Source: Alphaproteobacteria bacterium (GTDB lineage: Bacteria; Pseudomonadota; Alphaproteobacteria; CAAHEQ01; UBA3637). Taken from it: a stretch of 33,109 bases of DNA. Position numbers and translations under genes: made by a program. The stretch covers positions 1 to 33,109 of the forward strand of contig JAZLIX010000017.1 in NCBI GenBank assembly GCA_045617605.1, in the 5' to 3' direction. Positions within the stretch are counted from its first letter, which is position 1, and each line of letters begins with the position of its first letter. The notes under the pieces are model-generated. The model was not told the DNA's origin. It searched no databases and saw only the letters and a list, made by a program, of their open reading frames with translations. Shown here in pieces: positions 1,121 through 28,731 of the stretch.

Positions 1121-1180
1121 AAAAGGCTTGTATCTTTTAAAAATATCGTGTATCCTGACATAAAGAAAGGGAGTGGGAAG

Positions 1181-3533: not shown

Positions 3534-3542
3534 GGAGATAAC

Positions 3543-5739: not shown

Positions 5740-5756
5740 CTGAGCAGGTATTATCA

Positions 5757-7709
5757 ATGGATGAGAAGGAACAAAATTCGATTTCACAGGAAAGTGTTTC
5801 TGCTGATTCGTCTGAAGTAATTCAGGGAGCTGAACAGCAGTCCATTGATGTGTCCAAATCTGAAGAAACTCCTTTAGAAGGGATGATGGTTGCAAGTCAG
5901 ATTTTGGCTCCACCCAAACCATTGGAAGACAGTTTAAATACTTTAAAAGAATATCAAAGTGAACAATCACAAGAAGCTCCTCAAGCGTCTGTTCAACCTG
6001 AAGAAATTACTGCTGAAACAAAATTGACAGTGGAAGAGGATCCGAATTTTAAAGGAGATAATCCTGATGTACAGGCTCCACCAGGTGGGTCACCTTATGC
6101 CACTCCTGAATATGATAATAAGGATTATGGTTCACCCCAGTTTTTTAAAGATTTGTTTTCAAACGGAAATGAATGTGTAACCAGTACAACTGGTTCGTTT
6201 GCAGTCAATGATGAAACAAGGGCTATGTTGGCTTTGTTTTCCAATGGCCGATTGTTTGTTGTGGAAGATCATAAGTATGATGGTCGAGTTTTGGGATTTG
6301 AATATTTGGCTAAAAAAAGGCGTTTACAAATTGGTCAGCCAGAATATGTTCCTGCAGGTATTTTGAATGATATTTATAGTTATGCTGTTCAGATGCATAA
6401 CGCTTCTGTGATTGCAACAGATGATGAAACGCAACGTCAGACCAGAATGCAACGTGACTTTGTGACGGTGATTTCTCGGGCAGCGATTAATCACGTTTCT
6501 GACGTTCACATTGTAGTGGCAGAGCATACGACCGTTATGTTTCGTGTGAATGGATTAATGCAAACAGAAATGGAATATAATAAAGATTGGGGTGAAAGTT
6601 TTGTACGTGCAGCATTTGCTTCTGCTGATATTTCGGATGCCAACTATGCTCAGAATGAATATCAAGCAGCACAGAAATTGGGACGGACACCACTTCGTGG
6701 TTCTGGGGGTCGATTGGTTCTTCCTAAAAATGTGTTGGGTTTACGTTTACAATTTAACCCGATTGCGTTTGGTTCACGTTATGTTGTTATTCGTATTTTG
6801 TATGCAGATGAAAATGCGGCTTCTGGTGAAGAATCCATTAAAGCACTGGGCTATGGTAAATACGAATTGGATACATTTCGGTACTTACGCTCTATTCCTA
6901 CAGGAATTGTGATTGTTTCAGGACCAACAGGTTCTGGTAAATCAACTACTTTGCAACGAAATATGATAGCCATGTTACAGGAACGTAATTATGAAACTAA
7001 CTTGATTACGGTGGAAGATCCTCCTGAATATCCTATTCCTGGGGCTCGTCAAATGCCTGTGACCAATGCGGGAATTGAAGAGGCTAAAGATCGTGAATTT
7101 ACAAAGGCTTTAGCGGCGGCTCTGCGTTCTGATCCGGATTCATTGATGATTGGGGAAATTCGAACATTGTCAGCAGCTGATTTGGCTTTCCGTGGTGCTC
7201 TTTCAGGGCATAATGTGTGGTCAACGTTGCATGCTAATACGGCGGCGGCTGTATTATTACGTTTGCGAGATATTGGGGTTGAAAATTTTAAGTTGGAAGA
7301 TCCATCTATTATGCGGGGGATGTTGGCTCAGCGACTTTTCCGAAAACTTTGTCCACATTGCCGGATTCCTGCTCGTACACAATTAGATAATCCTGCTATT
7401 CAACGTTTACGTGAAGCTTATGGGGATATAGGGGTGGAAAGGGCTTATTTACGTGGTCCAGGATGTGAAGAATGTGATTTCCATGGAGTAAGTGGCCGAA
7501 CAGCCATTGCGGAATTTATTTTGCCTGATGCAACCTTTTTGGATTTAATGTTAAAAGGGGAATCACAAAAGGCAATGAATTATTGGATTTCAGATCTAAA
7601 AGGTCGAACATTGCGTGAAAATGCGGTAGAGCGGATGTTTAACGGGATATTGGATATTGATGAAGTTGAACGTTGGACTGGTCCAATCAATCGAAATGCC
7701 GTAGGTTAA
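5757..7709 (+). CDS. pilQ: Type IVb pilus assembly ATPase (GspE/PilB superfamily; PilQ in R64 nomenclature)
   Basis: Walker A GPTGSGKST, Asp box TVEDPPEY, Walker B DSLMIGEIR, His box GHNVWSTLHAN, and the tetracysteine motif CPHC...CEEC. About 150 aa of acidic low-complexity N-terminal extension. Confidence 0.9.
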   Translation: MDEKEQNSISQESVSADSSEVIQGAEQQSIDVSKSEETPLEGMMVASQILAPPKPLEDSLNTLKEYQSEQSQEAPQASVQPEEITAETKLTVEEDPNFKGDNPDVQAPPGGSPYATPEYDNKDYGSPQFFKDLFSNGNECVTSTTGSFAVNDETRAMLALFSNGRLFVVEDHKYDGRVLGFEYLAKKRRLQIGQPEYVPAGILNDIYSYAVQMHNASVIATDDETQRQTRMQRDFVTVISRAAINHVSDVHIVVAEHTTVMFRVNGLMQTEMEYNKDWGESFVRAAFASADISDANYAQNEYQAAQKLGRTPLRGSGGRLVLPKNVLGLRLQFNPIAFGSRYVVIRILYADENAASGEESIKALGYGKYELDTFRYLRSIPTGIVIVSGPTGSGKSTTLQRNMIAMLQERNYETNLITVEDPPEYPIPGARQMPVTNAGIEEAKDREFTKALAAALRSDPDSLMIGEIRTLSAADLAFRGALSGHNVWSTLHANTAAAVLLRLRDIGVENFKLEDPSIMRGMLAQRLFRKLCPHCRIPARTQLDNPAIQRLREAYGDIGVERAYLRGPGCEECDFHGVSGRTAIAEFILPDATFLDLMLKGESQKAMNYWISDLKGRTLRENAVERMFNGILDIDEVERWTGPINRNAVG

Positions 7710-7720
7710 AGGAGGGATAA

Positions 7721-8827
7721 ATGGCAACAAAAGAACAGGGAAGTTTTTTAGATACGCTTAATATAGGTTATGCCCATGCAATGGTCAGATTACATGCTGA
7801 AGACCGTTTGGAAATGTATCGTAAGTTAGCTGCTCTTTTAAAAAACCGCTTTTCTTTGATGGATGCCTTGGAACGACTTTATCAAATTGCCAGTAAAGAT
7901 GGAAAGAATAAGGAAGATTCAATGGCTTTGGCAATTACCAGTTGGATGACTCAAATACGAAATGGTAGTACCTTTTCAGAAGCTTTGCGTGGATGGGCAC
8001 CCAGTACTGAATTATTGCTGTTGTCTGTTGGTGATGTTTCAAATTTGGAAACAGCCTTACAGCATACCGTACGTGTGGTGGAGGGGATGAACAAAATGCG
8101 TGAGTTGGTCTGGGGCGCTGTGGCTTATCCTTTGTTCTTGTTGTCAATGGTTTCCTTGCTTATTTGGGCAGTTGCTAAGTTCATGGTGCCACCGATGAAA
8201 GAGGCTGTTCCTAATTTACAGTGGAAAGGAATAGCTGCCACTTTGGTGAATATGTCAGTTTTTGTGGATCAGCATCCTATTTTTTTGTTTTCAATATTAC
8301 CAGTGATAGTGGTTATAGTCTTACTTACGTTCCCTTATTGGAAAGGGGCGGGGCGTGCTACGGCTGACAAGATGCCACCATGGTCTATCTATCGGACATT
8401 TATCGGAGTCAGCTGGTTGTTGGCATTATCGGCTTTGGTACGGGCGGGGATGCCTGTGTCACGTGCTGTACGTGCTTTGATGGGAAATGAGGCGAGCCCT
8501 TATTTAAAATATCGATTGAATAGAACGCTACTTTACATCAATAACGGGGATAACTTGGGGGAAGCCCTTTATCATACCCATTTAGGTTTTCCAGATGAAG
8601 AAGTGGTTGGGGATTTGCGGATTTATGCTGAATTGGATACCTTCCAGGAGGCTTTGGAAAACCTGGCAAACGGGTGGTTGGAATCTTCTATTCGGGATAT
8701 TGATAAAAAAGCTGCCATCTTGAATGGGTTCGCCATTTTAATGATTGCTGGTGTCATTGGTTGGGTTGTTTGGGGTACCTTTGAAATGCAAAACCAAATG
8801 GTCAGTGGAATGGGTTTAGGCGGTTAA
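7721..8827 (+). CDS. pilR: Type IVb pilus inner-membrane platform protein (GspF/PilC family; PilR in R64 nomenclature)
   Basis: 368 aa. RBS aggaggg before ATG at 7721. Two cytoplasmic helical repeats and three hydrophobic segments, as in GspF-like proteins. Immediately follows the ATPase gene. Confidence 0.8.
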   Translation: MATKEQGSFLDTLNIGYAHAMVRLHAEDRLEMYRKLAALLKNRFSLMDALERLYQIASKDGKNKEDSMALAITSWMTQIRNGSTFSEALRGWAPSTELLLLSVGDVSNLETALQHTVRVVEGMNKMRELVWGAVAYPLFLLSMVSLLIWAVAKFMVPPMKEAVPNLQWKGIAATLVNMSVFVDQHPIFLFSILPVIVVIVLLTFPYWKGAGRATADKMPPWSIYRTFIGVSWLLALSALVRAGMPVSRAVRALMGNEASPYLKYRLNRTLLYINNGDNLGEALYHTHLGFPDEEVVGDLRIYAELDTFQEALENLANGWLESSIRDIDKKAAILNGFAILMIAGVIGWVVWGTFEMQNQMVSGMGLGG

Positions 8828-8998
8828 AGGGCGTGCATTCCCTACATTCAAGGCGAAAAAGTTTAAACATTTCTTGATTTTTGTCCAAAAACTGTCATCC
8901 TTTGGGGTGGGGGTTAGGGCGCTGATAGCACTGGCTCCAGTGACAATGGATGTTAAAGCTGTGATAATATCGTTAAAGTAAGTAATAATAAAATTCAT
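8816..8998 (-). CDS. Small phage membrane protein, possibly a holin-like lysis factor
   Basis: 60 aa. RBS ggagaa before ATG at 8998. N-terminal hydrophobic helix, then a TPTPKDD motif seen in small phage membrane proteins. Last gene of the particle operon, next to the endolysin. The 3' end overlaps the pilR stop by 12 nt. Confidence 0.45.
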   Translation of the reverse strand: MNFIITYFNDIITALTSIVTGASAISALTPTPKDDSFWTKIKKCLNFFALNVGNARPLTA

Positions 8999-9007
8999 TT
9001 TATTCTC

Positions 9008-9316
9008 CTATTTTAAAATCAGGTTAAGTAAGGCAATTGAAATAGCTGTGACAGTGGTTAAGGCGATTGTTCCCATTAATGAACGAAGGGGGGCAATTTC
9101 ACGTCGCAGTACAAATTCCTGGCGCAGTTGATTATGAATCTCTTGGCAAGTTTTTTTGTTTTGCACAGAGCCCATAAAATTCAAGAGTTCTGTATGAACA
9201 GAGGTAATTTGGGTTGATAAATCGGCAACTTGGCATTTAATTTCTGCCAGTTGCTTTTGTTGTGAATCGGCCAAGGCCATCAGGCGACCGATTTCCAGTG
9301 AAAAACTTTTTGGCAT
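9008..9316 (-). CDS. Coiled-coil protein with a C-terminal transmembrane anchor (lysis cassette member; spanin- or holin-like function unproven)
   Basis: 102 aa. RBS gaaagga. Heptad-like N-terminal region and the C-terminal TM TIALTTVTAISIALLNLIL. Lies 10 nt downstream of the endolysin gene. Confidence 0.45.
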   Translation of the reverse strand: MPKSFSLEIGRLMALADSQQKQLAEIKCQVADLSTQITSVHTELLNFMGSVQNKKTCQEIHNQLRQEFVLRREIAPLRSLMGTIALTTVTAISIALLNLILK

Positions 9317-9325
9317 TTTTTCCTT

Positions 9326-9733
9326 TCAGTTCACGGTATAGAACAAATGATTACCAATATGGGCTGATGGAATTACCCCGCGTGCCCAATAGGGATTGAC
9401 TTGAAGGGCGTGATAATGGGTTGCCCCACAGGTATTATCGGTCAGGTTTCCATGCAGAGCCCTTAAAGCAACTCGTTTACAAATTTGATAAACAGGGTCA
9501 TCTGATAAATCTTGTTGTAACAGTTTGAAGTTGGGGTCTGTTGGGTTCCAACAAGAAAATTGTTGAGGTTTTAAACAAATTTCAATGATTGTTTTTCCCC
9601 ACCACGTCCGTTGTTGGTGTAAAGCCATTTTATGACGGTTTAAAATCACATTAGCAACGGCCTCAATTCCAGACAAAGATTCCCCCCTGGCTTCGCCATA
9701 AAGGGTCTTGGCAAAAATTTCTAATTCATCCAT
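9326..9733 (-). CDS. Cell-wall hydrolase of the SleB/CwlJ (Hydrolase_2) family, putative endolysin
   Basis: LYGEARGES...IEAVANVILNR...QQFSCWN...ATHYHA...IGNHLFY matches the conserved blocks of this family. Confidence 0.85.
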   Translation of the reverse strand: MDELEIFAKTLYGEARGESLSGIEAVANVILNRHKMALHQQRTWWGKTIIEICLKPQQFSCWNPTDPNFKLLQQDLSDDPVYQICKRVALRALHGNLTDNTCGATHYHALQVNPYWARGVIPSAHIGNHLFYTVN

Positions 9734-9751
9734 TTTGTTATCCTTTCATTT

Positions 9752-11143
9752 TTAGGAACGCCATAAGGGGCGATTTCGGTTAAAACTGATGATTCGTGGT
9801 AGGCGGACTGGTTCTGATAACAGGCATCCTGCCACCGCATCCAATCCATCATCATGGGTTCGACCTGAGGCATTAAAGTCCTGCATTTCACTGACAAAAG
9901 GGGTGCTCATAACTGATGAATGGACATAAAGTGATCCGTTCATTAAGGGGGCTTCTAAAGCCCCTAAAATGCGTTCGGATTTATTTTGATGTGATGTTTT
10001 TTCTAGAATAGCGCATCCCATACGGCGACGGGAAAATTCTTGTCTTAAAAGGGCTGGCAAGAATCGTCCAATGCCATTTGTTTCCAGATGAACGGCAGGC
10101 AAATAATTATCCCACACAAAGTCGGCAACTTGTCGGCATTGCCAACTGGTTGATTCTTCTGCTTCAGGAACTTGCAGATATTTCATGGCGTGCAGGTAAT
10201 AGTTGCCGTCCTCGCCTGTAAAAACGCAAGCAATCACGCTGGCATCTCCGCCCGCTTTTCCAAAGGCGGGATCCCACCAACAACTGGCTGACATCATTTT
10301 TATATCTCCGATTTTCAGCAAGCCATATCCATTGGCTTCCCTATATAAAAGAGGAGTGTCATACATTTTAAGGCGTTTACTATCCAAGCGACTCTCATCA
10401 AATTTGACCGCTTGCAATAACATTTGGCTGGCAAATTTATTGGGGGTCGTAGAACGCCTGATTTCTTCAATTTTTTGTAATGAAAAGCGTTCAGGCCAAA
10501 CAGAGTCTCCCTTTAAATTCAACAAGGGGAGTTTCAGCCAATGCCAGCCTTCTTTTTTTTGATAAATGGTGTCTTCAGCATGGGGTGTCCCGATATACAA
10601 CATCATTCCACCAGGGGTTAGAATGTAGTCCAACTCTGCCAATTTTGTGCGCAGGTCCTTGCGCTTTAAGGCATTATTGCAAGTCTTGGGAACTTCCACG
10701 TCATCACATAAAATGATGTCTGCCCGACAGCCTGTCATATTGGCGGATAGTCCCCGAGCCAGCATAGAAGGGTCTCGTCCGACTTGAGTGCGTTTGATGG
10801 TAAAACGATCACTAGCCCATTCTTCTGCTTTATGGGGCTTCATTCCAAAACAAGCCGGATGATGCTCAATAATATGCTTGGTGTGGGCAACCATTTTTTT
10901 GGCCAGCGTATGATCGGCGGAAACCACCAACAACCTGAGATTCGGTTTTTGTAATAAGACCCAAGCACAAAATAACCCCACTAATGTTGATTTTCCGGAA
11001 TTACGGAAAGCCAAAAGCAGACCTTTTCGACCATTGGAACAGTTAAATAAATCTTCCAAAAATTGTCCAATGACTTTATGGTGGCGAGGTAATTTTAGAC
11101 CATTTACCTTATCCCAAATCCAAAGAAATTCCAGAAAAGTCAT
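9752..11143 (-). CDS. terL: Phage terminase large subunit
   Basis: 463 aa. N-terminal LPRHHKVIGQFLEDL block, Walker A-like FRNSGKST, Walker B-like ILCDDVE, and a C-terminal nuclease-like region with acidic residues (WWDPAFG, HDDGLDAVA). Confidence 0.85.
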   Translation of the reverse strand: MTFLEFLWIWDKVNGLKLPRHHKVIGQFLEDLFNCSNGRKGLLLAFRNSGKSTLVGLFCAWVLLQKPNLRLLVVSADHTLAKKMVAHTKHIIEHHPACFGMKPHKAEEWASDRFTIKRTQVGRDPSMLARGLSANMTGCRADIILCDDVEVPKTCNNALKRKDLRTKLAELDYILTPGGMMLYIGTPHAEDTIYQKKEGWHWLKLPLLNLKGDSVWPERFSLQKIEEIRRSTTPNKFASQMLLQAVKFDESRLDSKRLKMYDTPLLYREANGYGLLKIGDIKMMSASCWWDPAFGKAGGDASVIACVFTGEDGNYYLHAMKYLQVPEAEESTSWQCRQVADFVWDNYLPAVHLETNGIGRFLPALLRQEFSRRRMGCAILEKTSHQNKSERILGALEAPLMNGSLYVHSSVMSTPFVSEMQDFNASGRTHDDGLDAVAGCLLSEPVRLPRIISFNRNRPLWRS

Positions 11144-11390
11144 CGGTATTTAGTTCCTTTTTTGCTTGATCTAATAAAGTGCTGATATCAGGAATAACCG
11201 GTTCCAGTGTGGGTTCTTTTTGTGTCAGCTTCACTAATAAGGCCACGTGCAAAAGGGCGGCTTTACAAGCAGTGTGATAGGCATTAAATTCTTTTGTTTC
11301 ACTGGGAGCTGGTTCATTTGAAAAAGCTAAATAATCGGACAAGGCTTTTTGTAAGGCGGGGACAAGTTCCTTTCCTACTTCAAAACTCAT
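11109..11390 (-). CDS. Small protein immediately upstream of terL (positional candidate for the small terminase subunit)
   Basis: 93 aa. ATGA start/stop overlap with the upstream gene, and the 3' end overlaps the terL start by 35 nt. The position is analogous to T7 gp18. No recognisable motif. Confidence 0.4.
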   Translation of the reverse strand: MSFEVGKELVPALQKALSDYLAFSNEPAPSETKEFNAYHTACKAALLHVALLVKLTQKEPTLEPVIPDISTLLDQAKKELNTDDFSGISLDLG

Positions 11391-11863
11391 TTAATCATGG
11401 TCCGACTGAAACTGGTACTGATATTACCTAAAGTATTTAAGGAACTGAGTTTACTTTCAGAACTTAAACTATTCAGGCGCAATAAGTTAGTACTATTGGT
11501 ATTTCCCAAACTATTTAACAACGCCTCAGAAGAAATTTTGGCTTGATTTTGCAGGTATTTATCCTCAATATCATGTTCTCTTTGCAGGGCGTTTAAATAA
11601 GTTTGACCGGTTCCTGATTTACTGCTGGTTCCCAAAGCCCCTAAAGAAGCCTTATAGGCGGCCTGTTGTTGAAGCAGTAAATTTCTTTTTTTTCTTTGTT
11701 GTTCAGCCAAAGCTAACTTGGCTTGTTCATCTTGCAGTCTGGTATTTTCAGCCGCCGTCCGATTGGCATTTTTAATGGTTTTCTTTTGACGGTCAGAATT
11801 GACTTTTGTATAATATGCACTTGCCAAAGCACTGGCAATAGTGACAACGATAGCAGCTTCCAT
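11387..11863 (-). CDS. Small virion-associated or internal protein (N-terminal TM plus Q/K/L/S-rich coiled coil)
   Basis: 158 aa. Starts 2 nt after the nozzle gene stop. N-terminal hydrophobic MEAAIVVTIASALASAYY, then low-complexity helical sequence. Sits where T7-like phages place their internal virion proteins. Confidence 0.45.
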   Translation of the reverse strand: MEAAIVVTIASALASAYYTKVNSDRQKKTIKNANRTAAENTRLQDEQAKLALAEQQRKKRNLLLQQQAAYKASLGALGTSSKSGTGQTYLNALQREHDIEDKYLQNQAKISSEALLNSLGNTNSTNLLRLNSLSSESKLSSLNTLGNISTSFSRTMIK

Positions 11864-11864
11864 T

Positions 11865-13790
11865 TTATCCTCCTATTTTAATATCGCTGACAACGGATAC
11901 AAGTTTAAAGGTGGCGGGTAAAGTTCCCTTGATTTCCCATAAAGCGTTTTGGGGATTTCTGTGCCATCCTAATCCTCTGATGACTAAATCCAGTGTGTGT
12001 TTTTGTGGGATACTGTCCATTTGGTAATTTGCCAAATTTGGTACCAATTCTTGATGGAGTCCAGATCCTGTATCAATTTCAACACTTTGGGTATCTACAA
12101 CACGAAAAACGCCCCGAATAAATCTGGCATTGGTAACAGGAGCAGGTCCATTATTTGCTCCAGTAATTGGGGGCAGAGGGGCAATCAGATGTGTGAAGGC
12201 TAATCCTACTTCTACTGCAGAGGCGGGTGTTAAAAGGGTTAAAGTTCCATTTTCAATTATTTGTGGGTCTTGAACTCGTCCATCAGCGACAATTTGAACT
12301 TGTTGTCTTTCCAATACAGTAAGCCCTGTCCATATGTCTGTGGCTGGAGTGGCACTCAATAAGAATCCTCTATCAGTATGCAGGTCTTCATTAAATTTTT
12401 CTAGATAATAGGTGTTATCCTCTTTAATAATAAAGTAAGCATTTCCACCGCAAACGGTCACGTTTTGAAAAGCACCTTGTGTGGTTTGATGTGTCCAGCT
12501 CTGCATATCTTCAGCACGAAAACTGGTGAGGACAGATAAACTCCCATCTTGCATCACGACATAGGCTTGACGTAAGTATTTATCGTACGCCATATCCACA
12601 GGTTTATCAATTAAATGATGGGCTAGTAAGGAAAGGTCGGTTGCTTGATAGACACCTTCTAAATCCGAAAATAAAAATTCCCGAATTTCTTTCCCATTGG
12701 CGGCTGCAAAAATGGTGGCTCCATCTATTCCGACAGGGGGAATAAAGTGTGTATCATCTGACCCTACTTGCGTTTGGCGTTTTAACTGAATGGAGGTCGG
12801 CGTTAAAGGATCACCTGTCACCATCCATTCGGCACTGGTGGTAAAAACTTGTAAATGACGTCCAGCAAATAAAGCACAAATTTTATTGGCTTGGTCTGAC
12901 ATCAATGAAAAAGTAATGGCTTCACTGTCCAGCGCTGTTCCTTCTTCAAAGTTTGAAATGTCTTCAGTTTGACTGAACCACAAGGTGTTTGGTAAATCTT
13001 TAGACCCACCGAATACCAATCTGGATTGATAAGTTGTCACAGTTGTCGGCCACCCATGTTCGCTGCATAGGGCTGGTTCTCCCCAATAGCGTGTGGGATT
13101 TAAAGGGGTCGAATCAGCAATATCGTTCTCTTCCATCAGCTTTTTTAAAACAGTTGCGGTGGCAGTTGTAGTATTACTGACGCCGGTAATTCTGACATAG
13201 CCATCGGCTAGTTTAAATTGCTTACCAATGTGGGTATTGGTGAATACATTGGCACTGGCGGTTAAGGTCACGTTTCCGCCACATCCTGATGAAGCTATTG
13301 TTACATTGTCTGCTACAAAACGAGCATAGGGTTGGTGGATATAATTGTTGGCATTTAAAAAGTCAAAATTATTCCCAGTCCAAGTGTTATTTTTGAAAGT
13401 GAATTGATAAGGTTGAACATCAGCGTGAACGACAATCAGTCCGTCGGACAAAGCGCACCAACAAAGTTTATCTAATTGTGCCGTTGTCCAAGGGGTTGTC
13501 AGGGTTGCCTGTAAAACTTCATTTTTGTAAATTTGCGTTTCTTCATTTAAAATCAAAAATAAATAGGTGTTTTGGCTATCCTGCTCATAACTGATGAGGC
13601 GTGCTTTTCCGTTCAAGGTTTGTAAGTATTGAAGACCCGGGCGACGATGAATACCCCCAGTGGGTTCAATAAAAACATTTTCCAACTTTAAGGCGCCGTT
13701 GGCATAAGCATTTAAATCGGCTCGTCCCAACAGATCAGGGGACAATTCCCCTGCGGTAAAGTTGGTTTTAGTGGTAAATAAGTTTGTCAT
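11865..13790 (-). CDS. Podovirus tail tubular protein B / nozzle-like protein
   Basis: 641 aa. The N-terminal FTAGELSPDLLGRADLNAYANGALKLENVFIEPTGGIHRRPG is the block I associate with nozzle proteins of podoviruses. ATGA overlap with the upstream adaptor gene. Confidence 0.65.
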   Translation of the reverse strand: MTNLFTTKTNFTAGELSPDLLGRADLNAYANGALKLENVFIEPTGGIHRRPGLQYLQTLNGKARLISYEQDSQNTYLFLILNEETQIYKNEVLQATLTTPWTTAQLDKLCWCALSDGLIVVHADVQPYQFTFKNNTWTGNNFDFLNANNYIHQPYARFVADNVTIASSGCGGNVTLTASANVFTNTHIGKQFKLADGYVRITGVSNTTTATATVLKKLMEENDIADSTPLNPTRYWGEPALCSEHGWPTTVTTYQSRLVFGGSKDLPNTLWFSQTEDISNFEEGTALDSEAITFSLMSDQANKICALFAGRHLQVFTTSAEWMVTGDPLTPTSIQLKRQTQVGSDDTHFIPPVGIDGATIFAAANGKEIREFLFSDLEGVYQATDLSLLAHHLIDKPVDMAYDKYLRQAYVVMQDGSLSVLTSFRAEDMQSWTHQTTQGAFQNVTVCGGNAYFIIKEDNTYYLEKFNEDLHTDRGFLLSATPATDIWTGLTVLERQQVQIVADGRVQDPQIIENGTLTLLTPASAVEVGLAFTHLIAPLPPITGANNGPAPVTNARFIRGVFRVVDTQSVEIDTGSGLHQELVPNLANYQMDSIPQKHTLDLVIRGLGWHRNPQNALWEIKGTLPATFKLVSVVSDIKIGG

Positions 13791-14356
13791 CCACGTACCT
13801 CAATCAATGAAAAATCTTGAAAAGTTGAATTGACATTTTGCTGTGAATCAACCAGACGAGCTGTCGAAATACTTGTTTCTGACATTTTTTTGACATACTC
13901 CGTACGGGTGGTGCTTTCGGTTAAGGGCAGACAGAATTCAGTGGCTAATTTTCCAACCAAGGCTTCTACAAAAAAGGCAGGGAAAGTGTTTTCTTCGGGG
14001 CGACGAATATAATTTAAAACAACCTTATCGGCATTAGTGTACAGTTTTTGTCCCACGATTTTATAATTCAGTCCTGAGCTTTTCACATTTTGTCCGGCAG
14101 ACAAAACACGCACACAATCATTGGGGAGTTGGTATGCATATTGATAATCTGACACGGGGTTTTCAGTTAAACGGGCTAGTGTTTTTTGGGTTAAGGCAAA
14201 GCGCCATGGATAAGAGGCCAATAAGTTTTGTAGCGTTGGCTCATACAGTTGGTTGGCGACTTCGGCTTCGGCAGTTTCTTCTTCAAAGGAAGTGATGCTT
14301 TTCGCACCAATTTTAATCAAGGCTTTGGAACAAAGCGTAATGGCAGTATCACTCAT
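13787..14356 (-). CDS. Podovirus head-tail adaptor / tail tubular protein A-like
   Basis: 189 aa. The LCSKALIKIGAKSITSFEE...YPWRFAL...YQYAYQLPNDCVRVL pattern is typical of this adaptor family. First gene after the capsid terminator. Confidence 0.6.
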   Translation of the reverse strand: MSDTAITLCSKALIKIGAKSITSFEEETAEAEVANQLYEPTLQNLLASYPWRFALTQKTLARLTENPVSDYQYAYQLPNDCVRVLSAGQNVKSSGLNYKIVGQKLYTNADKVVLNYIRRPEENTFPAFFVEALVGKLATEFCLPLTESTTRTEYVKKMSETSISTARLVDSQQNVNSTFQDFSLIEVRG

Positions 14357-14376
14357 TTTAAATCCTTTCTTAAATC

Positions 14377-14404
14377 AAAAAAAACCGACCTCGTGTGAGG
14401 TCGG
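14377..14404 (-). terminator. Rho-independent terminator directly downstream of the major capsid gene
   Basis: On the minus strand, CCGACCTC-acac-GAGGTCGG (8-bp GC-rich stem at 14385-14392 / 14397-14404) is followed by eight T (plus-strand A run 14377-14384). Confidence 0.8.
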
Positions 14405-14421
14405 CAAGGGGTGCAATTTTT

Positions 14422-15273
14422 TTATTCAGCGACTGGAACAATATCCAAACATTCCATTTTGACAACACCGTTGTCATCAATTAAACAAGCTCCTTGGCTC
14501 ATCATATTGTTGACATAATGGGCGGCATAATCACCATGCCATGTAATGTCTGTGGTAATGTCTTGACCGGCGGCGAGTCCAATGGCGGACTTGTGGTAAA
14601 TAAAGCAAGTCGTTGTGGCAGAACTGTCAGATCCGGAAGTTGGTAAGCCTGTATGCATAATCCAGTTGATGCCCATCCATTTACGGGATTCAGAACCAGA
14701 TAACAAGGGGTGTTCATCGCCCACATAGTTGGCGTTGGAAAATTCTTCCAAACTTAAAAGTTGGTTCCATTGAGCAGGTCCCACCAAAGCATAGCGTTCG
14801 CCATCATCAGGAACATCATTTGTGTTGAGTGTTTTGAAGGCCGTCAAAATACGTTCTTTGGTCAAAGCTTCTGAAGAAGTTCCGGCAGTTTGTGTACCAT
14901 CACTTAAGGCTGTGATGATCAAATCATCTGTTTTGCGACCCAAGGCATAAGCACCGGCGGTAGCCAAGACTTTACGTTCATCATGGCCGACTTTTAATTC
15001 GTCCAATTTATCTACCCATTGTCCGGCGTACCAGTCGGCCAATGTACATTCCACAGGGGCGTGTGTGACAGCGGCCGGTGTTAATTGGGCATTGCGGGCA
15101 GATTTTTGGTTGGCTGTTTGTGTTCCAATCACTTGGAAAGTTGTACTGGCACCGTTCACGTTATCTTTAAAACGAACAGTGGAACGCAATTTTGAACCTT
15201 GTTGCTGATAGGCGGTATGCACATCGGCTTCAAAGTGTTTAATAAAGGCAGCATCAATAGCTGTTGAGGTCAT
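14422..15273 (-). CDS. Major capsid protein (probable HK97 fold)
   Basis: 283 aa. Follows the scaffold gene and is followed by a strong terminator. The N-terminal FIKHFEADVHTAYQQQGSKLRSTVR...GRKTDDLIITAL pattern recalls phage capsid families. RBS aggagaaaaaaa. Confidence 0.7.
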   Translation of the reverse strand: MTSTAIDAAFIKHFEADVHTAYQQQGSKLRSTVRFKDNVNGASTTFQVIGTQTANQKSARNAQLTPAAVTHAPVECTLADWYAGQWVDKLDELKVGHDERKVLATAGAYALGRKTDDLIITALSDGTQTAGTSSEALTKERILTAFKTLNTNDVPDDGERYALVGPAQWNQLLSLEEFSNANYVGDEHPLLSGSESRKWMGINWIMHTGLPTSGSDSSATTTCFIYHKSAIGLAAGQDITTDITWHGDYAAHYVNNMMSQGACLIDDNGVVKMECLDIVPVAE

Positions 15274-15400
15274 TTTTTTCTCCTATAAAAGTTTTTAAGT
15301 TTATAAACAAATCCTTTTAATGGGTTGTGAAGAAAATTCTTCGCCGATTATCAAGGGCATTTTTGCGGGACCCATAGAGTTTATCCGCTGGTTCAAAGGG

Positions 15401-16051
15401 TTAGCCGTACAAACGGCGGAAGCCCCTTTCAACACGCTGAACCAATTCAGGATCTTGTTCTTTCCAATATTTTGGATCCTGCATCAGTCGGCGTAAAGTG
15501 ATTTCATCATCTTTGGTATTCAGCTGGCTTTTGCCGGCAATGACAGGCGATTCTTGCTTTTCCTGCATCATTCGGTAAAGCGTCATAATGCCATCTTTAG
15601 ATGTGGCTAAAGTATTAAAGGTGTTTGTGTCTAAATTCTTTTCTCCCCATTGGGATAGTTGACGGGCGATTTCATTAAAGCGTTCTGCTCCGCCAAATTC
15701 TTTTTCCAATTCCTGCAGTTCTTTATCGGCGGATAATTGTTCTGTCATCGATTGGATTTGTGGAATTAAAATTTCTGCAGCAATATCATACACGCCTTGC
15801 ACTTGTTCATTGGTGAGTCCCAGTTGAAATAAACGTTCGTTGATTACTTTATCAATGACTAACAAAGGATTTTTAAGGGTAATTTTGTATCCTTCGGCAT
15901 TGGTGGGAATTCCTTCTTTTGGGGCGCCCAGTTTCTTTTCCAAAGCGACATACGATTTGGCTAAATCATTCACATTGACATTTCCTTCTTTGTCCAAGAA
16001 TTTTTCTGGGACAACAGGGGTTTCATTTTCTTCTTTTAATAAATTGGTCAT
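15401..16051 (-). CDS. Capsid scaffolding protein
   Basis: 216 aa, acidic and helical. N-terminal PEKFLDKEGNVNVNDLAKSYVALEKKLG motif. Lies between the portal and capsid genes. Confidence 0.6.
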   Translation of the reverse strand: MTNLLKEENETPVVPEKFLDKEGNVNVNDLAKSYVALEKKLGAPKEGIPTNAEGYKITLKNPLLVIDKVINERLFQLGLTNEQVQGVYDIAAEILIPQIQSMTEQLSADKELQELEKEFGGAERFNEIARQLSQWGEKNLDTNTFNTLATSKDGIMTLYRMMQEKQESPVIAGKSQLNTKDDEITLRRLMQDPKYWKEQDPELVQRVERGFRRLYG

Positions 16052-16060
16052 TCTGACTCC

Positions 16061-16258
16061 TTATTCTTTTTTTCCTTGTTCAATCAAATTATCCAGGTAG
16101 GCTATCATGGCGCGCTGACCTTCCAAATACCACAACTCGTTTGTGGAAGCATCGGGGGCCAGTGTGCGATTTAATGTGCGGGATTTCAGGTGTTCTAACA
16201 TCTTTTTCCCGTCTGCTGTATTTGACAGCCGCACCATCACGTGTTGAATTTCTTTCAT
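16061..16258 (-). CDS. Small conserved phage protein between portal and scaffold
   Basis: 65 aa from ATG at 16258, which forms an ATGA overlap with the portal stop; the track's longer 95-aa version runs inside the portal gene. From memory, NTADGKKMLEHL...LWYLEGQRAMIAYL resembles small proteins at this position in BPP-1-like podoviruses. Confidence 0.5.
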   Translation of the reverse strand: MKEIQHVMVRLSNTADGKKMLEHLKSRTLNRTLAPDASTNELWYLEGQRAMIAYLDNLIEQGKKE

Positions 16259-17742
16259 ACACTTTCCTTTAGCGGAATTGAGGGCGTTTGAGTATTTACT
16301 TTTTCCAGCATAAAGTTGCTTGGTAATCCCAATTTTTCGGCCATCCACTTCATAATTTCAGGCACGTTTAAGGTAGTGCTGGCCTCTTGTCCTAAACTGG
16401 CGACAGAAGTCAACCACTGCAAAGCATTTTGGGCATCTTTACGGTTTTGTGTTTCAGCTCTGGGGGATTTATAGCTGACATTTAACAATCTGCCATCAAT
16501 AAAGATTTCTGGAATTTCTCCCCGTTTACGGAGCAGTGCTGTTGCCCGTTCAATGAGTGGCATCAACAACTCTGATTGCAATCGTCCATAAGTGGCGCCT
16601 AGTATTCGAATCATTTCATCAGAACGCTCTAAAACTTCTGTGGCGGTCATCTTCATATCATCACACACAGTGCCTAGTTTATCGCCCAGCAAGGCGTGGC
16701 GAATGTGTTCACGTAAGTCTTTAATCACCAGTTGTGATACATCAAACTTGCCGGGGGCTTCCAATGGGGTCAGTCCTTTAGAGCCGACAGCTTTTGGAAT
16801 AATCGCACCCGGGGTCAGATGAATGTTGGCAGGATTTAAAATGCCATCATCTTCGGCTAACCAGATACCTGTCACGGCGATTGTGGCGTTTTTTAAAATC
16901 AATTCCACAACCTTGTTGGCGGTCTTAATATCTGGCAGAGCTTTCATGACAGGGGAACGGCCGTAAACTTCCCCCGGGGCTTTCAGCCAGCGGAACGCAA
17001 TAAATGGGCTGGTGGTGTAAACAGCTTCTTTCAGGACGAAAGGGAAATCCTGATTTTTTGCGGCGAGATGCTGGCAATTGGGATCCATAAAGGCAACCGA
17101 GCGATATCCGCCATTTTGTTGGGGTAAAATCGCTTCAATCACCTGAATGGGTGTTTCATCGTCTTTATCTTGTTTTAAATATCGGCTACCAAATCGGTCT
17201 TCAAATTCTGAACGCGTCAGTGAAAAACAGCGAAAGACCTTATCTAATTTTCCTGTGGGACCTTCGCTTAAACAGAGCTCACTTAAAGGAATAGCAGTAA
17301 AGCGGAAAGCAGATGTTGCGCCAATGGGGGCTTCTTCAAACAACAGGCACGCTGTTCCTGCGGTAATTAAATCCAAATAGCATTGATGAATTTCAGTTGC
17401 AAAGTTAGATCGATCAAAATGATTTTGTAAAGTGGCTGAGATTTTTTCCAAAGTCGGTGCGCATGATTCTTTTTCACCAGTGGAAAGTTCTGTCCCTGTA
17501 CTTAAACTAAACCAGCGCATCCATGGGGGCGTCAGTTCTGATAACATCAAGGCAGCCAGTTGGTCGGTAGCATCTGGAGCTGTTGCATCAAACAGGGTAC
17601 TGATTTTACTGCTACTACTTGAAAAAACTGTTTCACGTTGAGGCAGAGCATAGGCGTAACATTCTTGCCATGTGCTTTCCCAGTTGGCACGCACAGCTAA
17701 TGCTTTTTGATAGTCACGATAAAGAGATTGAATATCTGTCAT
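16255..17742 (-). CDS. Podovirus-type portal (head-to-tail connector, T7 gp8-like family)
   Basis: RBS ggagaa, then ATG at 17742; the track uses TTG at 17745. RANWESTWQECYAYALPQRE and LFDATAPDATDQLAALMLSELTPPWMRWFSL match the conserved N-terminal blocks of this connector family. Confidence 0.85.
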   Translation of the reverse strand: MTDIQSLYRDYQKALAVRANWESTWQECYAYALPQRETVFSSSSSKISTLFDATAPDATDQLAALMLSELTPPWMRWFSLSTGTELSTGEKESCAPTLEKISATLQNHFDRSNFATEIHQCYLDLITAGTACLLFEEAPIGATSAFRFTAIPLSELCLSEGPTGKLDKVFRCFSLTRSEFEDRFGSRYLKQDKDDETPIQVIEAILPQQNGGYRSVAFMDPNCQHLAAKNQDFPFVLKEAVYTTSPFIAFRWLKAPGEVYGRSPVMKALPDIKTANKVVELILKNATIAVTGIWLAEDDGILNPANIHLTPGAIIPKAVGSKGLTPLEAPGKFDVSQLVIKDLREHIRHALLGDKLGTVCDDMKMTATEVLERSDEMIRILGATYGRLQSELLMPLIERATALLRKRGEIPEIFIDGRLLNVSYKSPRAETQNRKDAQNALQWLTSVASLGQEASTTLNVPEIMKWMAEKLGLPSNFMLEKVNTQTPSIPLKESV

Positions 17743-17781
17743 CAAAATTCTCCTAAAGGGTTGAACAAAAAAACAACCTAG

Positions 17782-17820
17782 AATAGAAAAAAGAGTCTTC
17801 TCAAAATGAAAAGACTCTTT
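17782..17820 (-). terminator. Rho-independent terminator between the two early genes and the portal gene
   Basis: Perfect 9-bp inverted repeat AAGAGTCTT (17791-17799) / AAGACTCTT (17811-17819) with an 11-nt loop. On the minus strand the hairpin runs into a run of six U followed by CUAUU. Confidence 0.7.
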
Positions 17821-17875
17821 GGATACAGTTCTAGGTTTTAACTGAAATGGATTATATCACAAAAATTTTAAAATG

Positions 17876-18274
17876 TCAAGGATTATTTTCCTTTTTTGAC
17901 AAAATAAATTGAAAAAGTTGGTATGGTGTCCATATTTTTGGACTGGAAATTCCCAAAAAACGTTTGACAGTTTCGACACAGGTCAAAGGACGAAAATAAC
18001 CTTTTTCGGTTAAGTTTAGATAAGGTGTTGTTCGTAGCAACCGATATCCTTTTTCTTTAATCAGGAATAAAAGAGCTCTGTTTCGGACAAAAATTAAATC
18101 GGTGTAATTCCAAACGGGATCAATTAAAATCCAATCAAAACCATTCCCCATAATCAAGAAACAATGATAAAATCCTTTTTTTAAAAATTTTGTCCACCAA
18201 TGAGTTGGATTTCCACCAAAAGCGACATAGGCAAATGGAAAACGATAAGATGCAAGTGTCGGATTTAAAATCAT
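17876..18274 (-). CDS. Hypothetical protein, second early gene of the particle cluster
   Basis: 132 aa, W/F/Y-rich, with conserved-looking HCFLIM and TCVETVKRFLGI blocks suggesting a small enzyme fold. No family recognised. Confidence 0.5.
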   Translation of the reverse strand: MILNPTLASYRFPFAYVAFGGNPTHWWTKFLKKGFYHCFLIMGNGFDWILIDPVWNYTDLIFVRNRALLFLIKEKGYRLLRTTPYLNLTEKGYFRPLTCVETVKRFLGISSPKIWTPYQLFQFILSKKENNP

Positions 18275-18289
18275 ATAAAACTCCTTATA

Positions 18290-18646
18290 TTATAGACAAT
18301 AAACAATTCCTTTTTTGCGTAAAAGGGATTCTAAAAATGAAAGAGCCTCTTTCCAAAGTTGGCAAATTTTTAGACTATCGCCAAAATGTGGATGTGGTGG
18401 AACTTGTTCAAATCCATACTTGGTTAGTACTTTTAAATGAACGGGTTTTAAGGTGCCTTCTCTTAATAGTCTTTTGACAACAATGGCAATATCGGATGAT
18501 TCACAAGGGCGAATCGTTTTGGCTTCATATCCGTGAGTTCTTTCATTTTTTAAACTTTCACATAAACAGTACCAAAACCACGCTTCCTCTGTTGAATCAA
18601 AAGGTGTTGCTTTACGTGTGTCTGATGATAGGTAAATATTCCTCAT
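18290..18646 (-). CDS. Hypothetical small protein, first gene downstream of the SOS-box promoter (candidate regulator)
   Basis: 118 aa. RBS gaggag before ATG at 18646. The EEAWFWYCLCESL...RPCESSDIAIVVKRLLREGTLKPVHLKVLTKYG pattern hints at a helical DNA-binding region. Function inferred from position only. Confidence 0.5.
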   Translation of the reverse strand: MRNIYLSSDTRKATPFDSTEEAWFWYCLCESLKNERTHGYEAKTIRPCESSDIAIVVKRLLREGTLKPVHLKVLTKYGFEQVPPHPHFGDSLKICQLWKEALSFLESLLRKKGIVYCL

Positions 18647-18674
18647 TTAATCTCCTCTGATTTGTTTTAAAAAA

Positions 18675-18689
18675 GAACAAAACAAGAAC
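18675..18689. promoter_or_regulatory. Alphaproteobacterial-type SOS (LexA) box GAAC-N7-GAAC
   Basis: GAACAAAACAAGAAC is the exact reverse complement of the 15-mer in the recA leader (28710-28724). It overlaps the putative -10 of the leftward promoter. Confidence 0.7.
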
Positions 18690-18714
18690 TAACACACTTT
18701 TTTAGGAAAGTCAA
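18686..18714 (-). promoter_or_regulatory. Putative sigma70 promoter of the particle cluster (leftward)
   Basis: Minus strand: TTGACT (18714-18709), 17-nt spacer, TAGTTC (18691-18686). The -10 is weak and embedded in the SOS box. Confidence 0.4.
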
Positions 18715-18738
18715 TACCAAAATAAGAAAAAAATCCTA

Positions 18739-18767
18739 TTGACATTTTTAAAAAAGTATGTTAATCA
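18739..18767 (+). promoter_or_regulatory. Putative promoter of the HTH-S24 repressor gene (rightward, back-to-back with the leftward promoter)
   Basis: TTGACA (18739-18744), 17 nt, TAATCA (18762-18767). Confidence 0.4.
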
Positions 18768-18808
18768 TTTATACAACTAAAAAGGGTTTTAAAAAGAAAG
18801 GAAATGAT

Positions 18809-19444
18809 ATGCAACTTTCATATAATGAAATTTGGTTGGGATTGGAAAATTTGGCAGCAGCAAAAGGACTTTCTCTTTCCGCAATGGCACAAAAAGCGGG
18901 TTTGGATCCAACCAGTTTTAATAAATCAAAACGAATCGGGGCTGATGGTCGTAAACGATGGCCTTCCACCGAAAGTATGAATAAAGTTTTAAAGGCGACC
19001 AATACGACAGTCTTTGAGTTTATGGAATTGGCAGGTGAGCCTTGTCCTCAACCAAAAAATGTGATTCCTTTGTTGGGATTAGCCAAAGCGGGGCGTGAAG
19101 GTTATTTTGATTCGGATGGTTGGCCGATTTTGACGGATGATTGGGATGCTGTGGAATTTCCTTTTACACTGGATAAAAAAGTGTATGCTTTGGAAGTTTC
19201 CGGCAATAGTATGGAGCCTGTTTATCGGGATGGAGATAAGTTGATTGTGGCCCCCGATTTGGAAATTCGTAAGGGGGATCGTGTAATCACAAAAACAACA
19301 GGGGGGGAAGTGATGGTGAAGGAATTTCAGCGTCGTTCTTTGAATCAGGTGGAATTGAAGTCTTTGAATCCTGCTTGTCCAGATGTGGTGTTAGCCCCTT
19401 CTGATGTCGCTTGGATGGTTCGTGTGATTTGGGTCAGCCAATAA
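18809..19444 (+). CDS. HTH (XRE-like) plus S24 peptidase repressor (CI/LexA-like, self-cleaving type)
   Basis: ATG at 18809 with RBS aagga. N-terminal HTH LSLSAMAQKAGLDPTSFNKSKR, then RWPSTES. C-terminal S24 motifs GNSMEP (catalytic Ser) and a downstream Lys (EVMVKEF). Not the canonical winged-helix LexA N-terminus. Confidence 0.85.
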   Translation: MQLSYNEIWLGLENLAAAKGLSLSAMAQKAGLDPTSFNKSKRIGADGRKRWPSTESMNKVLKATNTTVFEFMELAGEPCPQPKNVIPLLGLAKAGREGYFDSDGWPILTDDWDAVEFPFTLDKKVYALEVSGNSMEPVYRDGDKLIVAPDLEIRKGDRVITKTTGGEVMVKEFQRRSLNQVELKSLNPACPDVVLAPSDVAWMVRVIWVSQ

Positions 19445-19500: not shown

Positions 19501-20031
19501 ATGAAAAAAATTTTTGCCTTTTTGATGACTTTGTCTTTTACAACGGTTGCTTTTGCGCAAGCTTGTACTGCTGTTTGTCCAATGGCCATAGGTTTGCTAT
19601 TGATAATAGCTAAAAAAATGAATGTTGAAGTTGAAGTTGTAGGGGTTTTGTCTGGAGCATTATTGAGTATAGTTGGTTATATTTTAATTAAGATTTTTAA
19701 TAAAAAAAATTGGCATTTTTTATTTCGTGATAAAATTTTAATGCTTTTTGCAATTTCATTGGTAGGTTTTGTATTTTTTAAAGATTTGGAATATAAGCCT
19801 CGTTTGGTTTGGAATTTTATATATATAGATTCATTCTTATTGGCTGCTATATGTGGGGCTTTGGCACATATAGCGGGGGTTCATTTATATGCTTGGATGA
19901 AAGAAAAGAATGGGGGGCATGCCCATTTCCCATTTGAAAAAGTGGTTGTTCCTATTTTGTGTGATGCCTTGGTGTGTTATATCTTTTGGGGAACCAATTT
20001 GTGTGAATGTAAAGAAGTTCTCATAAAATAA
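19501..20031 (+). CDS. Cys-rich polytopic membrane protein, unknown function
   Basis: 176 aa. RBS aaggag. Several hydrophobic helices. N-terminal CTAVC (CxxxC) and C-terminal CDALVC...CEC clusters. Confidence 0.6.
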   Translation: MKKIFAFLMTLSFTTVAFAQACTAVCPMAIGLLLIIAKKMNVEVEVVGVLSGALLSIVGYILIKIFNKKNWHFLFRDKILMLFAISLVGFVFFKDLEYKPRLVWNFIYIDSFLLAAICGALAHIAGVHLYAWMKEKNGGHAHFPFEKVVVPILCDALVCYIFWGTNLCECKEVLIK

Positions 20032-20043
20032 AAGGAGTTGAAA

Positions 20044-28697: not shown

Positions 28698-28709
28698 TTT
28701 TTCTCCTTT

Positions 28710-28724: not shown

Positions 28725-28731
28725 TTTTTGA

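Follow-up and report, generated by a model that had tools for sequence, protein, structure and literature searches.

A podovirus-derived, putative particle-production locus, probably gene transfer agent-like, in uncultured gut and rumen Alphaproteobacteria

Introduction

Gene transfer agents (GTAs) are defined by particles that package random host DNA, in fragments that cannot hold the locus encoding them. Few GTA families are known, and one podovirus-like candidate has been reported so far, FpGTA of Faecalibacterium prausnitzii (Borodovich et al., Nat Commun 2026, PMC12946183). Here we describe a compact phage-like unit of 15 genes in a 33,109-nt stretch of DNA from an alphaproteobacterium (assembly GCA_045617605.1, contig JAZLIX010000017.1). 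The whole stretch is referred to as the window, and all coordinates count from its first letter. In an earlier note made from the letters and their open reading frames (ORFs), the locus was described as a podovirus-type particle cluster and a candidate GTA-like or satellite system. No description of this element was found in literature searches.

FpGTA consists of a ~10.5-kb operon with the head and packaging genes of a short-tailed phage (TerS-like protein, TerL, portal, scaffold and capsid). It lacks genes for replication or integration and occurs almost throughout its host genus, and its fibre and lysis genes are located in a second operon of 5.5 kb (PMC12946183). Particles of ~40 nm containing 8.4–8.9 kb of packaged host DNA were shown experimentally (PMC12946183). 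Thus, podovirus-derived GTA-like elements exist, and the premise of the earlier note that a short-tailed GTA would be new is out of date. Compared by published description, FpGTA and the present unit are both compact short-tailed head and packaging operons of ~10.5 kb in gut bacteria. FpGTA differs by its Firmicute host, its separate lysis and fibre operon and its particles, which have been seen, whereas the present unit has its lysis genes inside, has no known fibre gene, has a repressor and an early-gene switch attached and is known from its genes alone.

RcGTA-type elements share with the unit an alphaproteobacterial host, a chromosomal head and packaging cluster without replication and integration genes, vertical inheritance and purifying selection. 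In RcGTA, the fibres are encoded elsewhere and competence proteins of the recipient help DNA entry. RcGTA is derived from a long-tailed HK97-like phage, whereas the unit was found to encode a T7-type portal, adaptor and nozzle; no homology to the RcGTA type (Rhodogtaviriformidae) and no tail tube or tape-measure genes were found in the unit. It is therefore not of the RcGTA type and points to an independent domestication.

In CcGTA of Caulobacter, the LexA-like protein RogA (~210 aa, with an S24-like domain) controls gafY and gafZ, the products of which activate and antiterminate the GTA cluster (PMC9632790, PMC11150451). RogA lacks the catalytic residues and binds GGAA-N4-TTCC (PMC9632790, PMC11150451). 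Compared by description of the regulators, the control logic is the same as that proposed for the unit, i.e., two small genes and a terminator-containing structural cluster. RogA resembles the repressors of one group of relatives of the unit (type B, see below) in the loss of catalytic residues, and the candidate operator of the unit has TAGGA(A) half-sites. CcGTA differs by its long-tailed RcGTA-type particle, its stationary-phase induction and the location of its regulators far from the cluster. In profile and fold searches, the early proteins of the unit did not detectably resemble proteins of the DnaA-domain-IV type, to which GafY belongs.

PBSX of Bacillus subtilis is a defective prophage that is unable to propagate. 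When induced by the SOS response, it packages host DNA and lyses its producer. It differs from the unit in having a contractile-tailed killer particle and a Gram-positive host.

Results

Gene content and phage ancestry

The unit was found to span positions 8816–19444 of the window (10,629 bp) and to consist of 14 closely packed genes on the minus strand (8816–18646 by ORF coordinates) and a divergent S24 repressor gene (Table 1). Profile searches against Pfam and PHROGs put family matches on ten of the 14 minus-strand genes, from the portal gene through the endolysin gene. All gene types listed in the earlier note were recovered on the minus strand and in their expected places. Of its sixteen minus-strand genes, 14 were supported, and the orthologous loci likewise have 14 called genes. 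The tight coupling that it described follows from the ORF coordinates: 4-nt overlaps are present at 13787–13790 and 11387–11390, the gene in the TerS position overlaps terL by 35 nt, and the last gene of the unit overlaps a host T2SSF (pilR-like) gene convergently by 12 nt, which forms the left boundary. With the ATG at 16258 as the start of the Bbp19-like gene, which gives a protein of 65 aa like its orthologues, a further overlap is present at 16255–16258. By its position, the 93-aa protein upstream of TerL is a candidate small terminase.

Table 1. Features of the unit and of its control DNA, with positions in the window.
Feature	Position	Strand	Evidence and remarks
Early gene 1, 118 aa	18290–18646	-	Four-helix protein, no named family; AlphaFold model with predicted local distance difference test (pLDDT) score of 83
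Early gene 2, 132 aa	17876–18274	-	Orphan family; model pLDDT 84
Portal, T7-type	16255–17745	-	PF12236, E 2.5e-121; likely start is the ATG at 17742
Bbp19-like small protein, 65 aa	16061–16258	-	PF25181, E 3e-10; orthologue also 65 aa
Scaffold(-like) protein	15401–16051	-	phrog_3742; orthologues match PF05396; syntenic with phage Hodr
Major capsid protein, HK97 fold, 283 aa	14422–15273	-	PF19821, E 7e-74
Adaptor, gp11-like, 189 aa	13787–14356	-	phrog_394, E 3e-53
Nozzle, gp12-like	11865–13790	-	phrog_376, E 9e-122; PF25675
gp14-like small internal virion protein, 158 aa	11387–11863	-	PF24072, E 4e-4, weak, under the Pfam cut-off
93-aa protein in TerS (small-terminase) position	11109–11390	-	phrog_31793, phage family of unknown function
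Large terminase TerL	9752–11143	-	phrog_38, E 2e-81; weak PF22530 and PF03237 matches
SleB-type endolysin	9326–9733	-	PF07486, E 2e-18; phrog_938
102-aa protein with C-terminal membrane anchor, lysis accessory (holin or spanin candidate)	9008–9316	-	Sequence, conserved position
60-aa membrane protein, holin candidate, last gene of the unit	8816–8998	-	phrog_9685 (phage family, unknown function), E 6e-12
S24 (LexA/CI-type) repressor	18758 (or 18809)–19444	+	PF00717, E 2e-22; phrog_4, transcriptional repressor
Divergent control region with two back-to-back promoters	18647–18808		Sequence reading and promoter scan; motifs conserved across type A loci
Promoter of the S24 gene	18739–18768	+	Promoter scan
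Early promoter	-35 TTGACT 18714–18709, -10 TAGTTC 18691–18686	-	Promoter scan
Palindrome AATAGGA..TCTTATT	18740–18721		Between the two -35 elements; TAGGA(A) half-sites
GTTC-N7-GTTC direct repeat GTTCTTGTTTTGTTC	18675–18689	-	Overlaps the early -10
Host SOS operator, same 15-mer (GAACAAAACAAGAAC on the recA strand)	28710–28724	+	12 nt upstream of the recA start codon; outside the element
Late promoter TTGACA-17-TATAAT, extended TG	17851–17879	-	12/12 consensus positions
Conserved leader CAGTTAA ... (G/C)TGTATC	17822–17850	-	Fixed distance from the -10
Intrinsic terminator between late promoter and portal gene	17790–17820	-	Hairpin and T-run
Intrinsic terminator after the capsid gene	14384–14405	-	Also in 24/42 loci

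In agreement with the earlier note, no integrase, excisionase, primase or polymerase was detected among the window ORFs scanned against Pfam and PHROGs. The same ORF scans showed no fibre, large ejection-protein or other phage-like genes elsewhere in the window. Like a GTA, the unit was thus found to be a phage-like structural and packaging cluster without replication, integration and excision genes of its own in the Pfam, PHROGs and NCBIfam searches, and this also applied to the Pfam-annotated related loci.

The nearest cultured relatives of the capsid protein were found in podoviruses of 32–35 kb, i.e., Pelagibacter phage Hodr (EXVC031P), HTVC010P-type pelagiphages and some Vibrio phages. 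The order portal-scaffold-capsid-adaptor-nozzle of the T7/HTVC010P virion module is present in the unit, and the large internal core proteins and tail fibres of these phages are absent. Hodr contains the portal, Bbp19-like, scaffold, capsid, adaptor and nozzle genes in the same order as the unit (43.5% protein identity for the capsid, 34% for the portal, 35% for the adaptor and 46% for the endolysin). It differs in that its nozzle gene is followed by genes of 159, 783, 1247, and 349 aa and by an early region, whereas the unit keeps the 158-aa gp14-like gene alone, located in the same position as the 159-aa gene of Hodr. Judged by position and size, the Hodr genes after the nozzle probably encode internal core (ejection) proteins and a fibre. 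Nothing detectably similar to TerL of the unit was found in the Hodr genome. From these comparisons, the unit consists of the head, tail stub, packaging motor and lysis genes of a Hodr-like phage, without the ejection apparatus, the fibres and the early and replication region.

Distribution and architectures

An exact look-up of the capsid protein of the window returned no record. A search with this protein gave 4128 relatives at E ≤ 1e-10. Several of the contigs containing these relatives were shown to include the S24 repressor gene, the two small early genes and the genes from the portal to the last membrane protein, always amid host genes and with capsid identities from 89% to 61%. At least 567 stretches in species-representative genomes (one per species) encode a capsid relative, and the best 80 of these were all from metagenome-assembled genomes (MAGs) of uncultured Alphaproteobacteria from gut, rumen or termite gut, e.g., Candidatus Enterousia and Candidatus Scatocola.

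Three architectures were distinguished. Type A (capsid identity to the window of at least 64%) comprises the window and 25 other loci with the same layout. The type A units are 10,423–11,181 bp long, and every gene was found to be intact and of near-constant length (adaptor of 189 aa in 24 of 26 loci, nozzle of 635–644 aa, TerL of 463–490 aa). Type B (capsid identity 59–61%; about 20 loci) contains the same repressor and early genes in a rearranged version of 11.5 kb, in which the terminase-lysis block precedes the portal gene. Type C (capsid identity 56–59%), mostly from Enterousia, is more rearranged.

In locus L081 (13761–19787) and about 30 other type C loci of the Candidatus Enterousia type (e.g., L067, L083, L087), the large terminase was found to be split into two ORFs about 3.3 kb apart, one of 197 aa for the ATPase and one of 307 aa for the nuclease. 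Three genes read from the other strand are located between the two halves; they encode an unknown protein of 217 aa, a double-HTH_3 protein and a complete DnaB-type helicase. Both terminase halves stay open in many species. L081 also contains lipB between the repressor-like gene and the endolysin gene. In L097 (6715–9681), from a GC-rich MAG labelled as Azospirillaceae, a HAMP/HisKA histidine kinase gene and an LTXXQ (CpxP/Spy-like) gene interrupt the scaffold-capsid region, and the cluster keeps the same repressor and two early genes.

Element fragments of 4–10 kb were found listed as viral in IMG/VR. The sole close match in the phage collection was MT838907.1, a 5,084-bp unannotated record from human faecal samples named 'Bacteriophage sp.', the capsid of which is 57.5% identical to that of the window. 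The deposited phage sequences thus already include fragments of this element family.

Vertical inheritance and purifying selection

The GC contents of the flanks ranged between 34% and 48%, and that of the element was shown to track them, with r = 0.90 and a mean difference of 0.002. Besides, protein identities of the element and of the flanks were near equal over 71 locus pairs sharing flank genes (r = 0.89), a coefficient that is not to be read as a probability because the pairs are mutually non-independent, so that the weight lies on the near-equality of the identities. For element and flank, respectively, these were 67.8% and 66.8% between the window and L002, 88.6% and 83.5% between L001 and L020, and 84.1% and 87.0% between L002 and L018. 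Within the close pair L002 and L003, nonsynonymous divergence (dN) was 0.00–0.02 compared to a synonymous divergence (dS) of 0.09–0.42 for the 13 genes scored, including small ones; the Bbp19-like and 93-aa genes gave no dN/dS value in this pair. In distant pairs, dS was saturated (>1) and dN was 0.05–0.4.

No att-like flanking repeats were detected in 21 loci, the longest shared words being 8–11 nt and within the range of shuffled controls. No free or circular form was found, and the 7–10-kb Logan contigs run into host genes. Pfam-annotated flanks of related loci showed no integrase or replication module. An integrated temperate prophage would be recognized by an integrase or a transposase, by att repeats and by a replication or early module, and these were absent, as were the features of phage satellites such as phage-inducible chromosomal islands (PICIs), capsid-forming PICIs, P4-like satellites and PICI-like elements (integrase, att, replication initiator and mobility). 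Distant versions were found to contain inserted host genes, i.e., a histidine kinase gene in L097 and lipB and dnaB in L081. Neighbours that recur in shuffled arrangements around the loci (lnt, a small helix-turn-helix gene, the ATP synthase operon and pil genes) look like the result of local rearrangement around an old locus rather than of repeated insertion.

The GC match, the co-varying identities, the low dN/dS, the lack of att repeats and the recurrent neighbours together support that the unit is fixed and under selection. On these comparative data, the unit shows the vertical inheritance and purifying selection of a GTA. As judged from the sequence comparisons, a decaying remnant is excluded, and the results argue strongly against a mobile phage or satellite. 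The argument of the earlier note that intact ORFs speak against decay was confirmed, since all genes are intact in dozens of species-level genomes and under purifying selection. The observations that it had named as contrary to a GTA-like system, a full prophage with integrase and replication modules in relatives, or frameshifts and relaxed selection, were looked for, and neither was encountered.

Repressor, divergent control region and SOS box

The S24 gene, regarded in the earlier note as the right-hand neighbour of the cluster, was found to accompany the cluster in every genomic context looked at and is part of the element. It likely starts at the ATG at 18809, which gives a protein of 211 aa, the same as in the orthologues. 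Host LexA was considered as the identity of this protein and ruled out, because the likeness to LexA is restricted to the C-terminal domain and the gene travels with the unit: the match to TIGR00498 (LexA equivalog) reached 39 bits compared to a cut-off of 111 and covered residues 103–218 only, and PDB matches to LexA spanned the C-terminal domain only. An alignment showed that three features of self-cleaving repressors are kept in type A: the Ala-Gly site in LAKAGREG, the Ser in SGNSMEP and the Lys in VMVKE.

The control region between the repressor gene and the first early gene contains two divergent promoters, and the palindrome located between their -35 elements is a candidate operator of the S24 repressor. 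The -10 element of the early promoter is overlapped by a GTTC-N7-GTTC direct repeat, the LexA-box type of Alphaproteobacteria. In 24 type A loci, this box occupies the same place before early gene 1; the type B loci contain a GTTA-N7-GTTA variant instead.

The host SOS wiring claimed in the earlier note was supported by the recA gene of the same window, since the box upstream of recA and the box at the early promoter are identical at all 15 bases. The exact 15-mer was found at just these two places in the window; one further match to the degenerate box pattern lies inside a pilus gene, at a chance expectation of ~1. Whichever protein binds, the early operon appears to share its operator with recA, which would tie the control of the element to the host SOS regulon. 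The LexA-type box at the early promoter, identical to that of recA, may reflect host regulatory control; the unit also carries its own repressor. A LexA-type repressor presumably binds the direct repeat and the S24 repressor the palindrome.

Two side observations concern this region. In the type B repressors (e.g., L009, 2934–3554), the alignment showed that the catalytic S24 serine is lost and that the N-terminal DNA-binding domain is highly conserved, and the loss of the serine is accompanied by a change of the direct repeat before the early genes from GTTC-N7-GTTC to GTTA-N7-GTTA. In the recA promoter region (window 28698–28760; recA at 27663–28697 on the minus strand), the box reads GAAC-N7-GAAC.

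Late promoter, leader and terminators

A late promoter that agrees with the consensus at all scored positions is located directly after the early genes, and the stop codon of early gene 2 sits within its -35 element. Among 24 aligned loci, drawn from types A and B, the CTTGACA of this promoter did not vary. The conserved leader that follows is a candidate loading or pause element for a late regulator. Between the leader and the portal gene, a hairpin followed by a T-run was found in 37 of 42 loci; among random windows of 180 nt, 19% contained one. The stem sequences vary among the loci. With the second hairpin, located after the capsid gene, two intrinsic terminators are present, as expected from the preserved terminators mentioned in the earlier note. 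Late promoter and leader occurred once per locus and had no further copies elsewhere in the window, e.g., before fibre operons. A metagenome-wide pattern scan for the same combination gave 120 stretches, of which 3 were the element itself and the others look like chance.

In lambdoid phages, late control has the order Q gene, PR', pause or loading element, tR' and late operon. The unit shows the same layout, with a candidate regulator gene just upstream of a strong promoter, a conserved element in the initially transcribed region, a terminator within ~60 nt and then the late operon. One of the early proteins is therefore predicted to be an antiterminator. The difference from the lambdoid system is that neither early protein significantly matches the Q families.

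Early proteins

The profile and structure searches proposed in the earlier note gave families for most genes of the unit and no significant match for the two early proteins: neither the 118-aa nor the 132-aa protein matched Pfam, PHROG, NCBIfam or PDB profiles. For the 118-aa protein, 98 close relatives were found, and its family profile, searched against 1.84 billion representatives, gave 556 clusters at E ≤ 0.001, mostly of 110–160 aa; no functional name was found in ten of these clusters that were looked up. The Q protein of phage 21 was the most frequent top PDB fold match of its model and the best match to a Q family overall, with a template modelling (TM) score of 0.44–0.48 that is non-significant (E > 1), and fold matches in BFVD were weak. 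The protein is possibly a late-gene regulator of the Q-like antiterminator kind; the Q21 fold matches are a hint that agrees with the DNA evidence and are no test in themselves.

The 132-aa protein had 124 close relatives among 5.8 billion proteins, none of them named. H37, C38, and C99 were invariant in an alignment of 33 sequences, and C38 was nearly invariant in the wider set of types A and B. Its model gave no PDB fold match. The conserved His and Cys residues had suggested a permuted papain/LRAT-like thiol enzyme, an idea that was dropped as it had no profile or fold support.

Discussion

Proposed working of the unit

In an undamaged cell, the early promoter would be shut by a LexA-type repressor on the GTTC-N7-GTTC box over the -10 element, and also by the CI/RogA-like S24 repressor of the element via the palindrome between the divergent promoters. 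Upon DNA damage, RecA would become active, the repressors would self-cleave and the 118-aa and 132-aa early genes would be expressed. One or both early proteins would then modify RNA polymerase that has started at the constitutive-looking consensus late promoter, and the modified polymerase would pass the promoter-proximal and post-capsid terminators, a logic of the lambda Q type that is also that of Caulobacter GafZ. A single late transcript would give the portal, scaffold, capsid, adaptor, nozzle, gp14-like protein, terminase and lysis proteins. As the unit itself provides neither excision nor replication, the terminase would have to fill the heads from chromosomal DNA in situ, after which the cell would lyse. 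Since the predicted particles contain no large ejection proteins or fibres, delivery would need fibre genes elsewhere and uptake help from the recipient, as in RcGTA.

Main reading and rival explanations

We favour, with somewhat better than even confidence, a reading of the unit as a podovirus-derived particle-production module that is now a fixed, vertically inherited locus of many uncultured gut and rumen Alphaproteobacteria, i.e., a GTA-like viriform. A more specific version, which we hold tentatively and at rather less than even confidence, is that of an undescribed, independently domesticated podovirus-derived GTA family fixed in hundreds of species of these bacteria. It would be switched on upon damage by a cascade that leads from the LexA box and the CI/RogA-like repressor to a promoter-proximal antiterminator of a new type and, having lost the ejection proteins and fibres, would bring host DNA only into the periplasm of kin, with uptake completed by the recipient.

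Several points weigh against this reading. The particles and the packaging of host DNA are predictions from the genes of uncultured MAGs. The circuit appears phage-like and self-contained, its repressor being of the self-cleaving CI type and its late switch Q-like, whereas classical GTAs are run by global regulators of the host, and the similarity of the early proteins to known antiterminators was not significant in sequence and fold searches. If the head is sized as in the 32–35-kb phages that encode the capsid relatives, a particle could carry the 10.6-kb locus, and the inability to carry its own genes that marks a GTA would be lost. Without fibres and large ejection proteins, the particles may deliver no DNA at all. 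Finally, the comparison of related genomes suggested in the earlier note supported vertical inheritance, purifying selection and a domesticated GTA-like element but did not support a single common locus: the sites differ among clades (pil/corA, ATP synthase, and lnt/tRNA methyltransferase), which means that the unit moved, or its surroundings were rearranged, several times.

An explanation that we regard as unlikely, and that its fit to much of the evidence keeps under consideration, is a PBSX-like defective prophage kept for another purpose, such as SOS-induced lysis of a subpopulation, in which particles kill or adsorb or lysis releases DNA or goods, the packaged DNA being incidental and undelivered. 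The same caveat was raised for FpGTA by its authors (PMC12946183). The SOS-type control, the endolysin and holin candidates of the unit itself and the lack of fibres and large ejection proteins, unlike Hodr, would all be expected from such a prophage, and the evidence for domestication fits it equally well. The full packaging machine (portal, TerS-position protein and TerL), however, is retained in every locus under purifying selection and would be superfluous for pure lysis or killing, and we know of no tailocin-like killing mechanism of podovirus stubs. Spread of the unit by its own particles appears improbable. For this, the terminase would start at a pac site in or near the unit, and a head of more than 11 kb would take the unit and its flanks in a lateral-transduction-like manner, with entry by flank recombination. 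The 32–35-kb genomes of the phages with related capsids, the compact and always complete unit with its attached control module and the occupation of several different sites agree with such a route, but flank recombination cannot account for new sites, the identities of element and flank are equal without excess similarity between distant hosts, and the GC content of the element is fully adjusted to each host.

The earlier note had left two further alternatives, a capsid-forming satellite and a recently truncated prophage. We see no more than a slight chance for a mobile mini-phage or capsid-forming satellite to which a helper phage would supply integration, replication, fibres and ejection proteins. 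The unit has its own head and packaging genes like capsid-forming satellites, the functions that it misses are those that a helper could supply, and fragments are listed as viral in IMG/VR; this is opposed by the absence of an integrase, att repeats, a tRNA target and free or circular contigs, by the co-divergence and GC matching with the flanks and by the host genes inserted inside distant versions. To our knowledge, the satellites described so far have an integrase as well as a replication module. A recently truncated, decaying late region of a prophage would account for the lack of early, replication and integration genes, and it is very improbable, having been refuted as far as sequence comparison can do so: the genes are intact and of constant length in more than 40 species-level loci, dS is saturated, dN/dS is low where measured and the regulatory DNA is conserved.

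If the unit, as a GTA-like module, makes DNA-carrying particles, it would represent a second, independently derived short-tailed lineage, present in widespread uncultured gut Alphaproteobacteria. With 15 genes on 10.6 kb, switch included, it is unusually compact and suited to asking what a GTA minimally requires in a tractable host. The control region provides a clean, testable circuit; of its two orphan early proteins, one may represent an antiterminator of a new kind. Besides, the loci record stages of domestication, with a repressor that keeps the self-cleavage residues in one lineage and is catalytically dead in another, and with host genes inserted in others. This bears on the conversion of phages into host organelles.

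Flanking genes

The remainder of the window was found to be ordinary chromosome, with no tRNA gene, and an Rfam scan of the unit matched no known RNA family. A type IVb pilus cluster forms the left flank. The right flank contains genes for a CorA-family (CorA/ZntB) transporter and a DUF4167 protein, rimP-nusA-ylxR-infB, recA (PF00154, E 8e-144) and malQ; its host-like character had been recognized in the earlier note, to which recA is added here.

The pilus cluster (305–8827; Tcp/R64-like) encodes a TcpQ-like protein, a secretin, PilO, a 305-aa unknown protein, T2SSE and T2SSF, and it ends at the T2SSF gene, with no pilin, prepilin peptidase or adhesin gene after it. In L033, the same pilus genes were found on the opposite side of the element, and the element and the pilus cluster thus adjoin in two arrangements. 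Between the repressor and CorA-family genes (19501–20622), two conserved unknown genes encode a 176-aa membrane protein and a 194-aa protein. These were seen only at the pil/corA site (window, L002–L005 and L024) and are therefore assigned to the host flank and not to the element.

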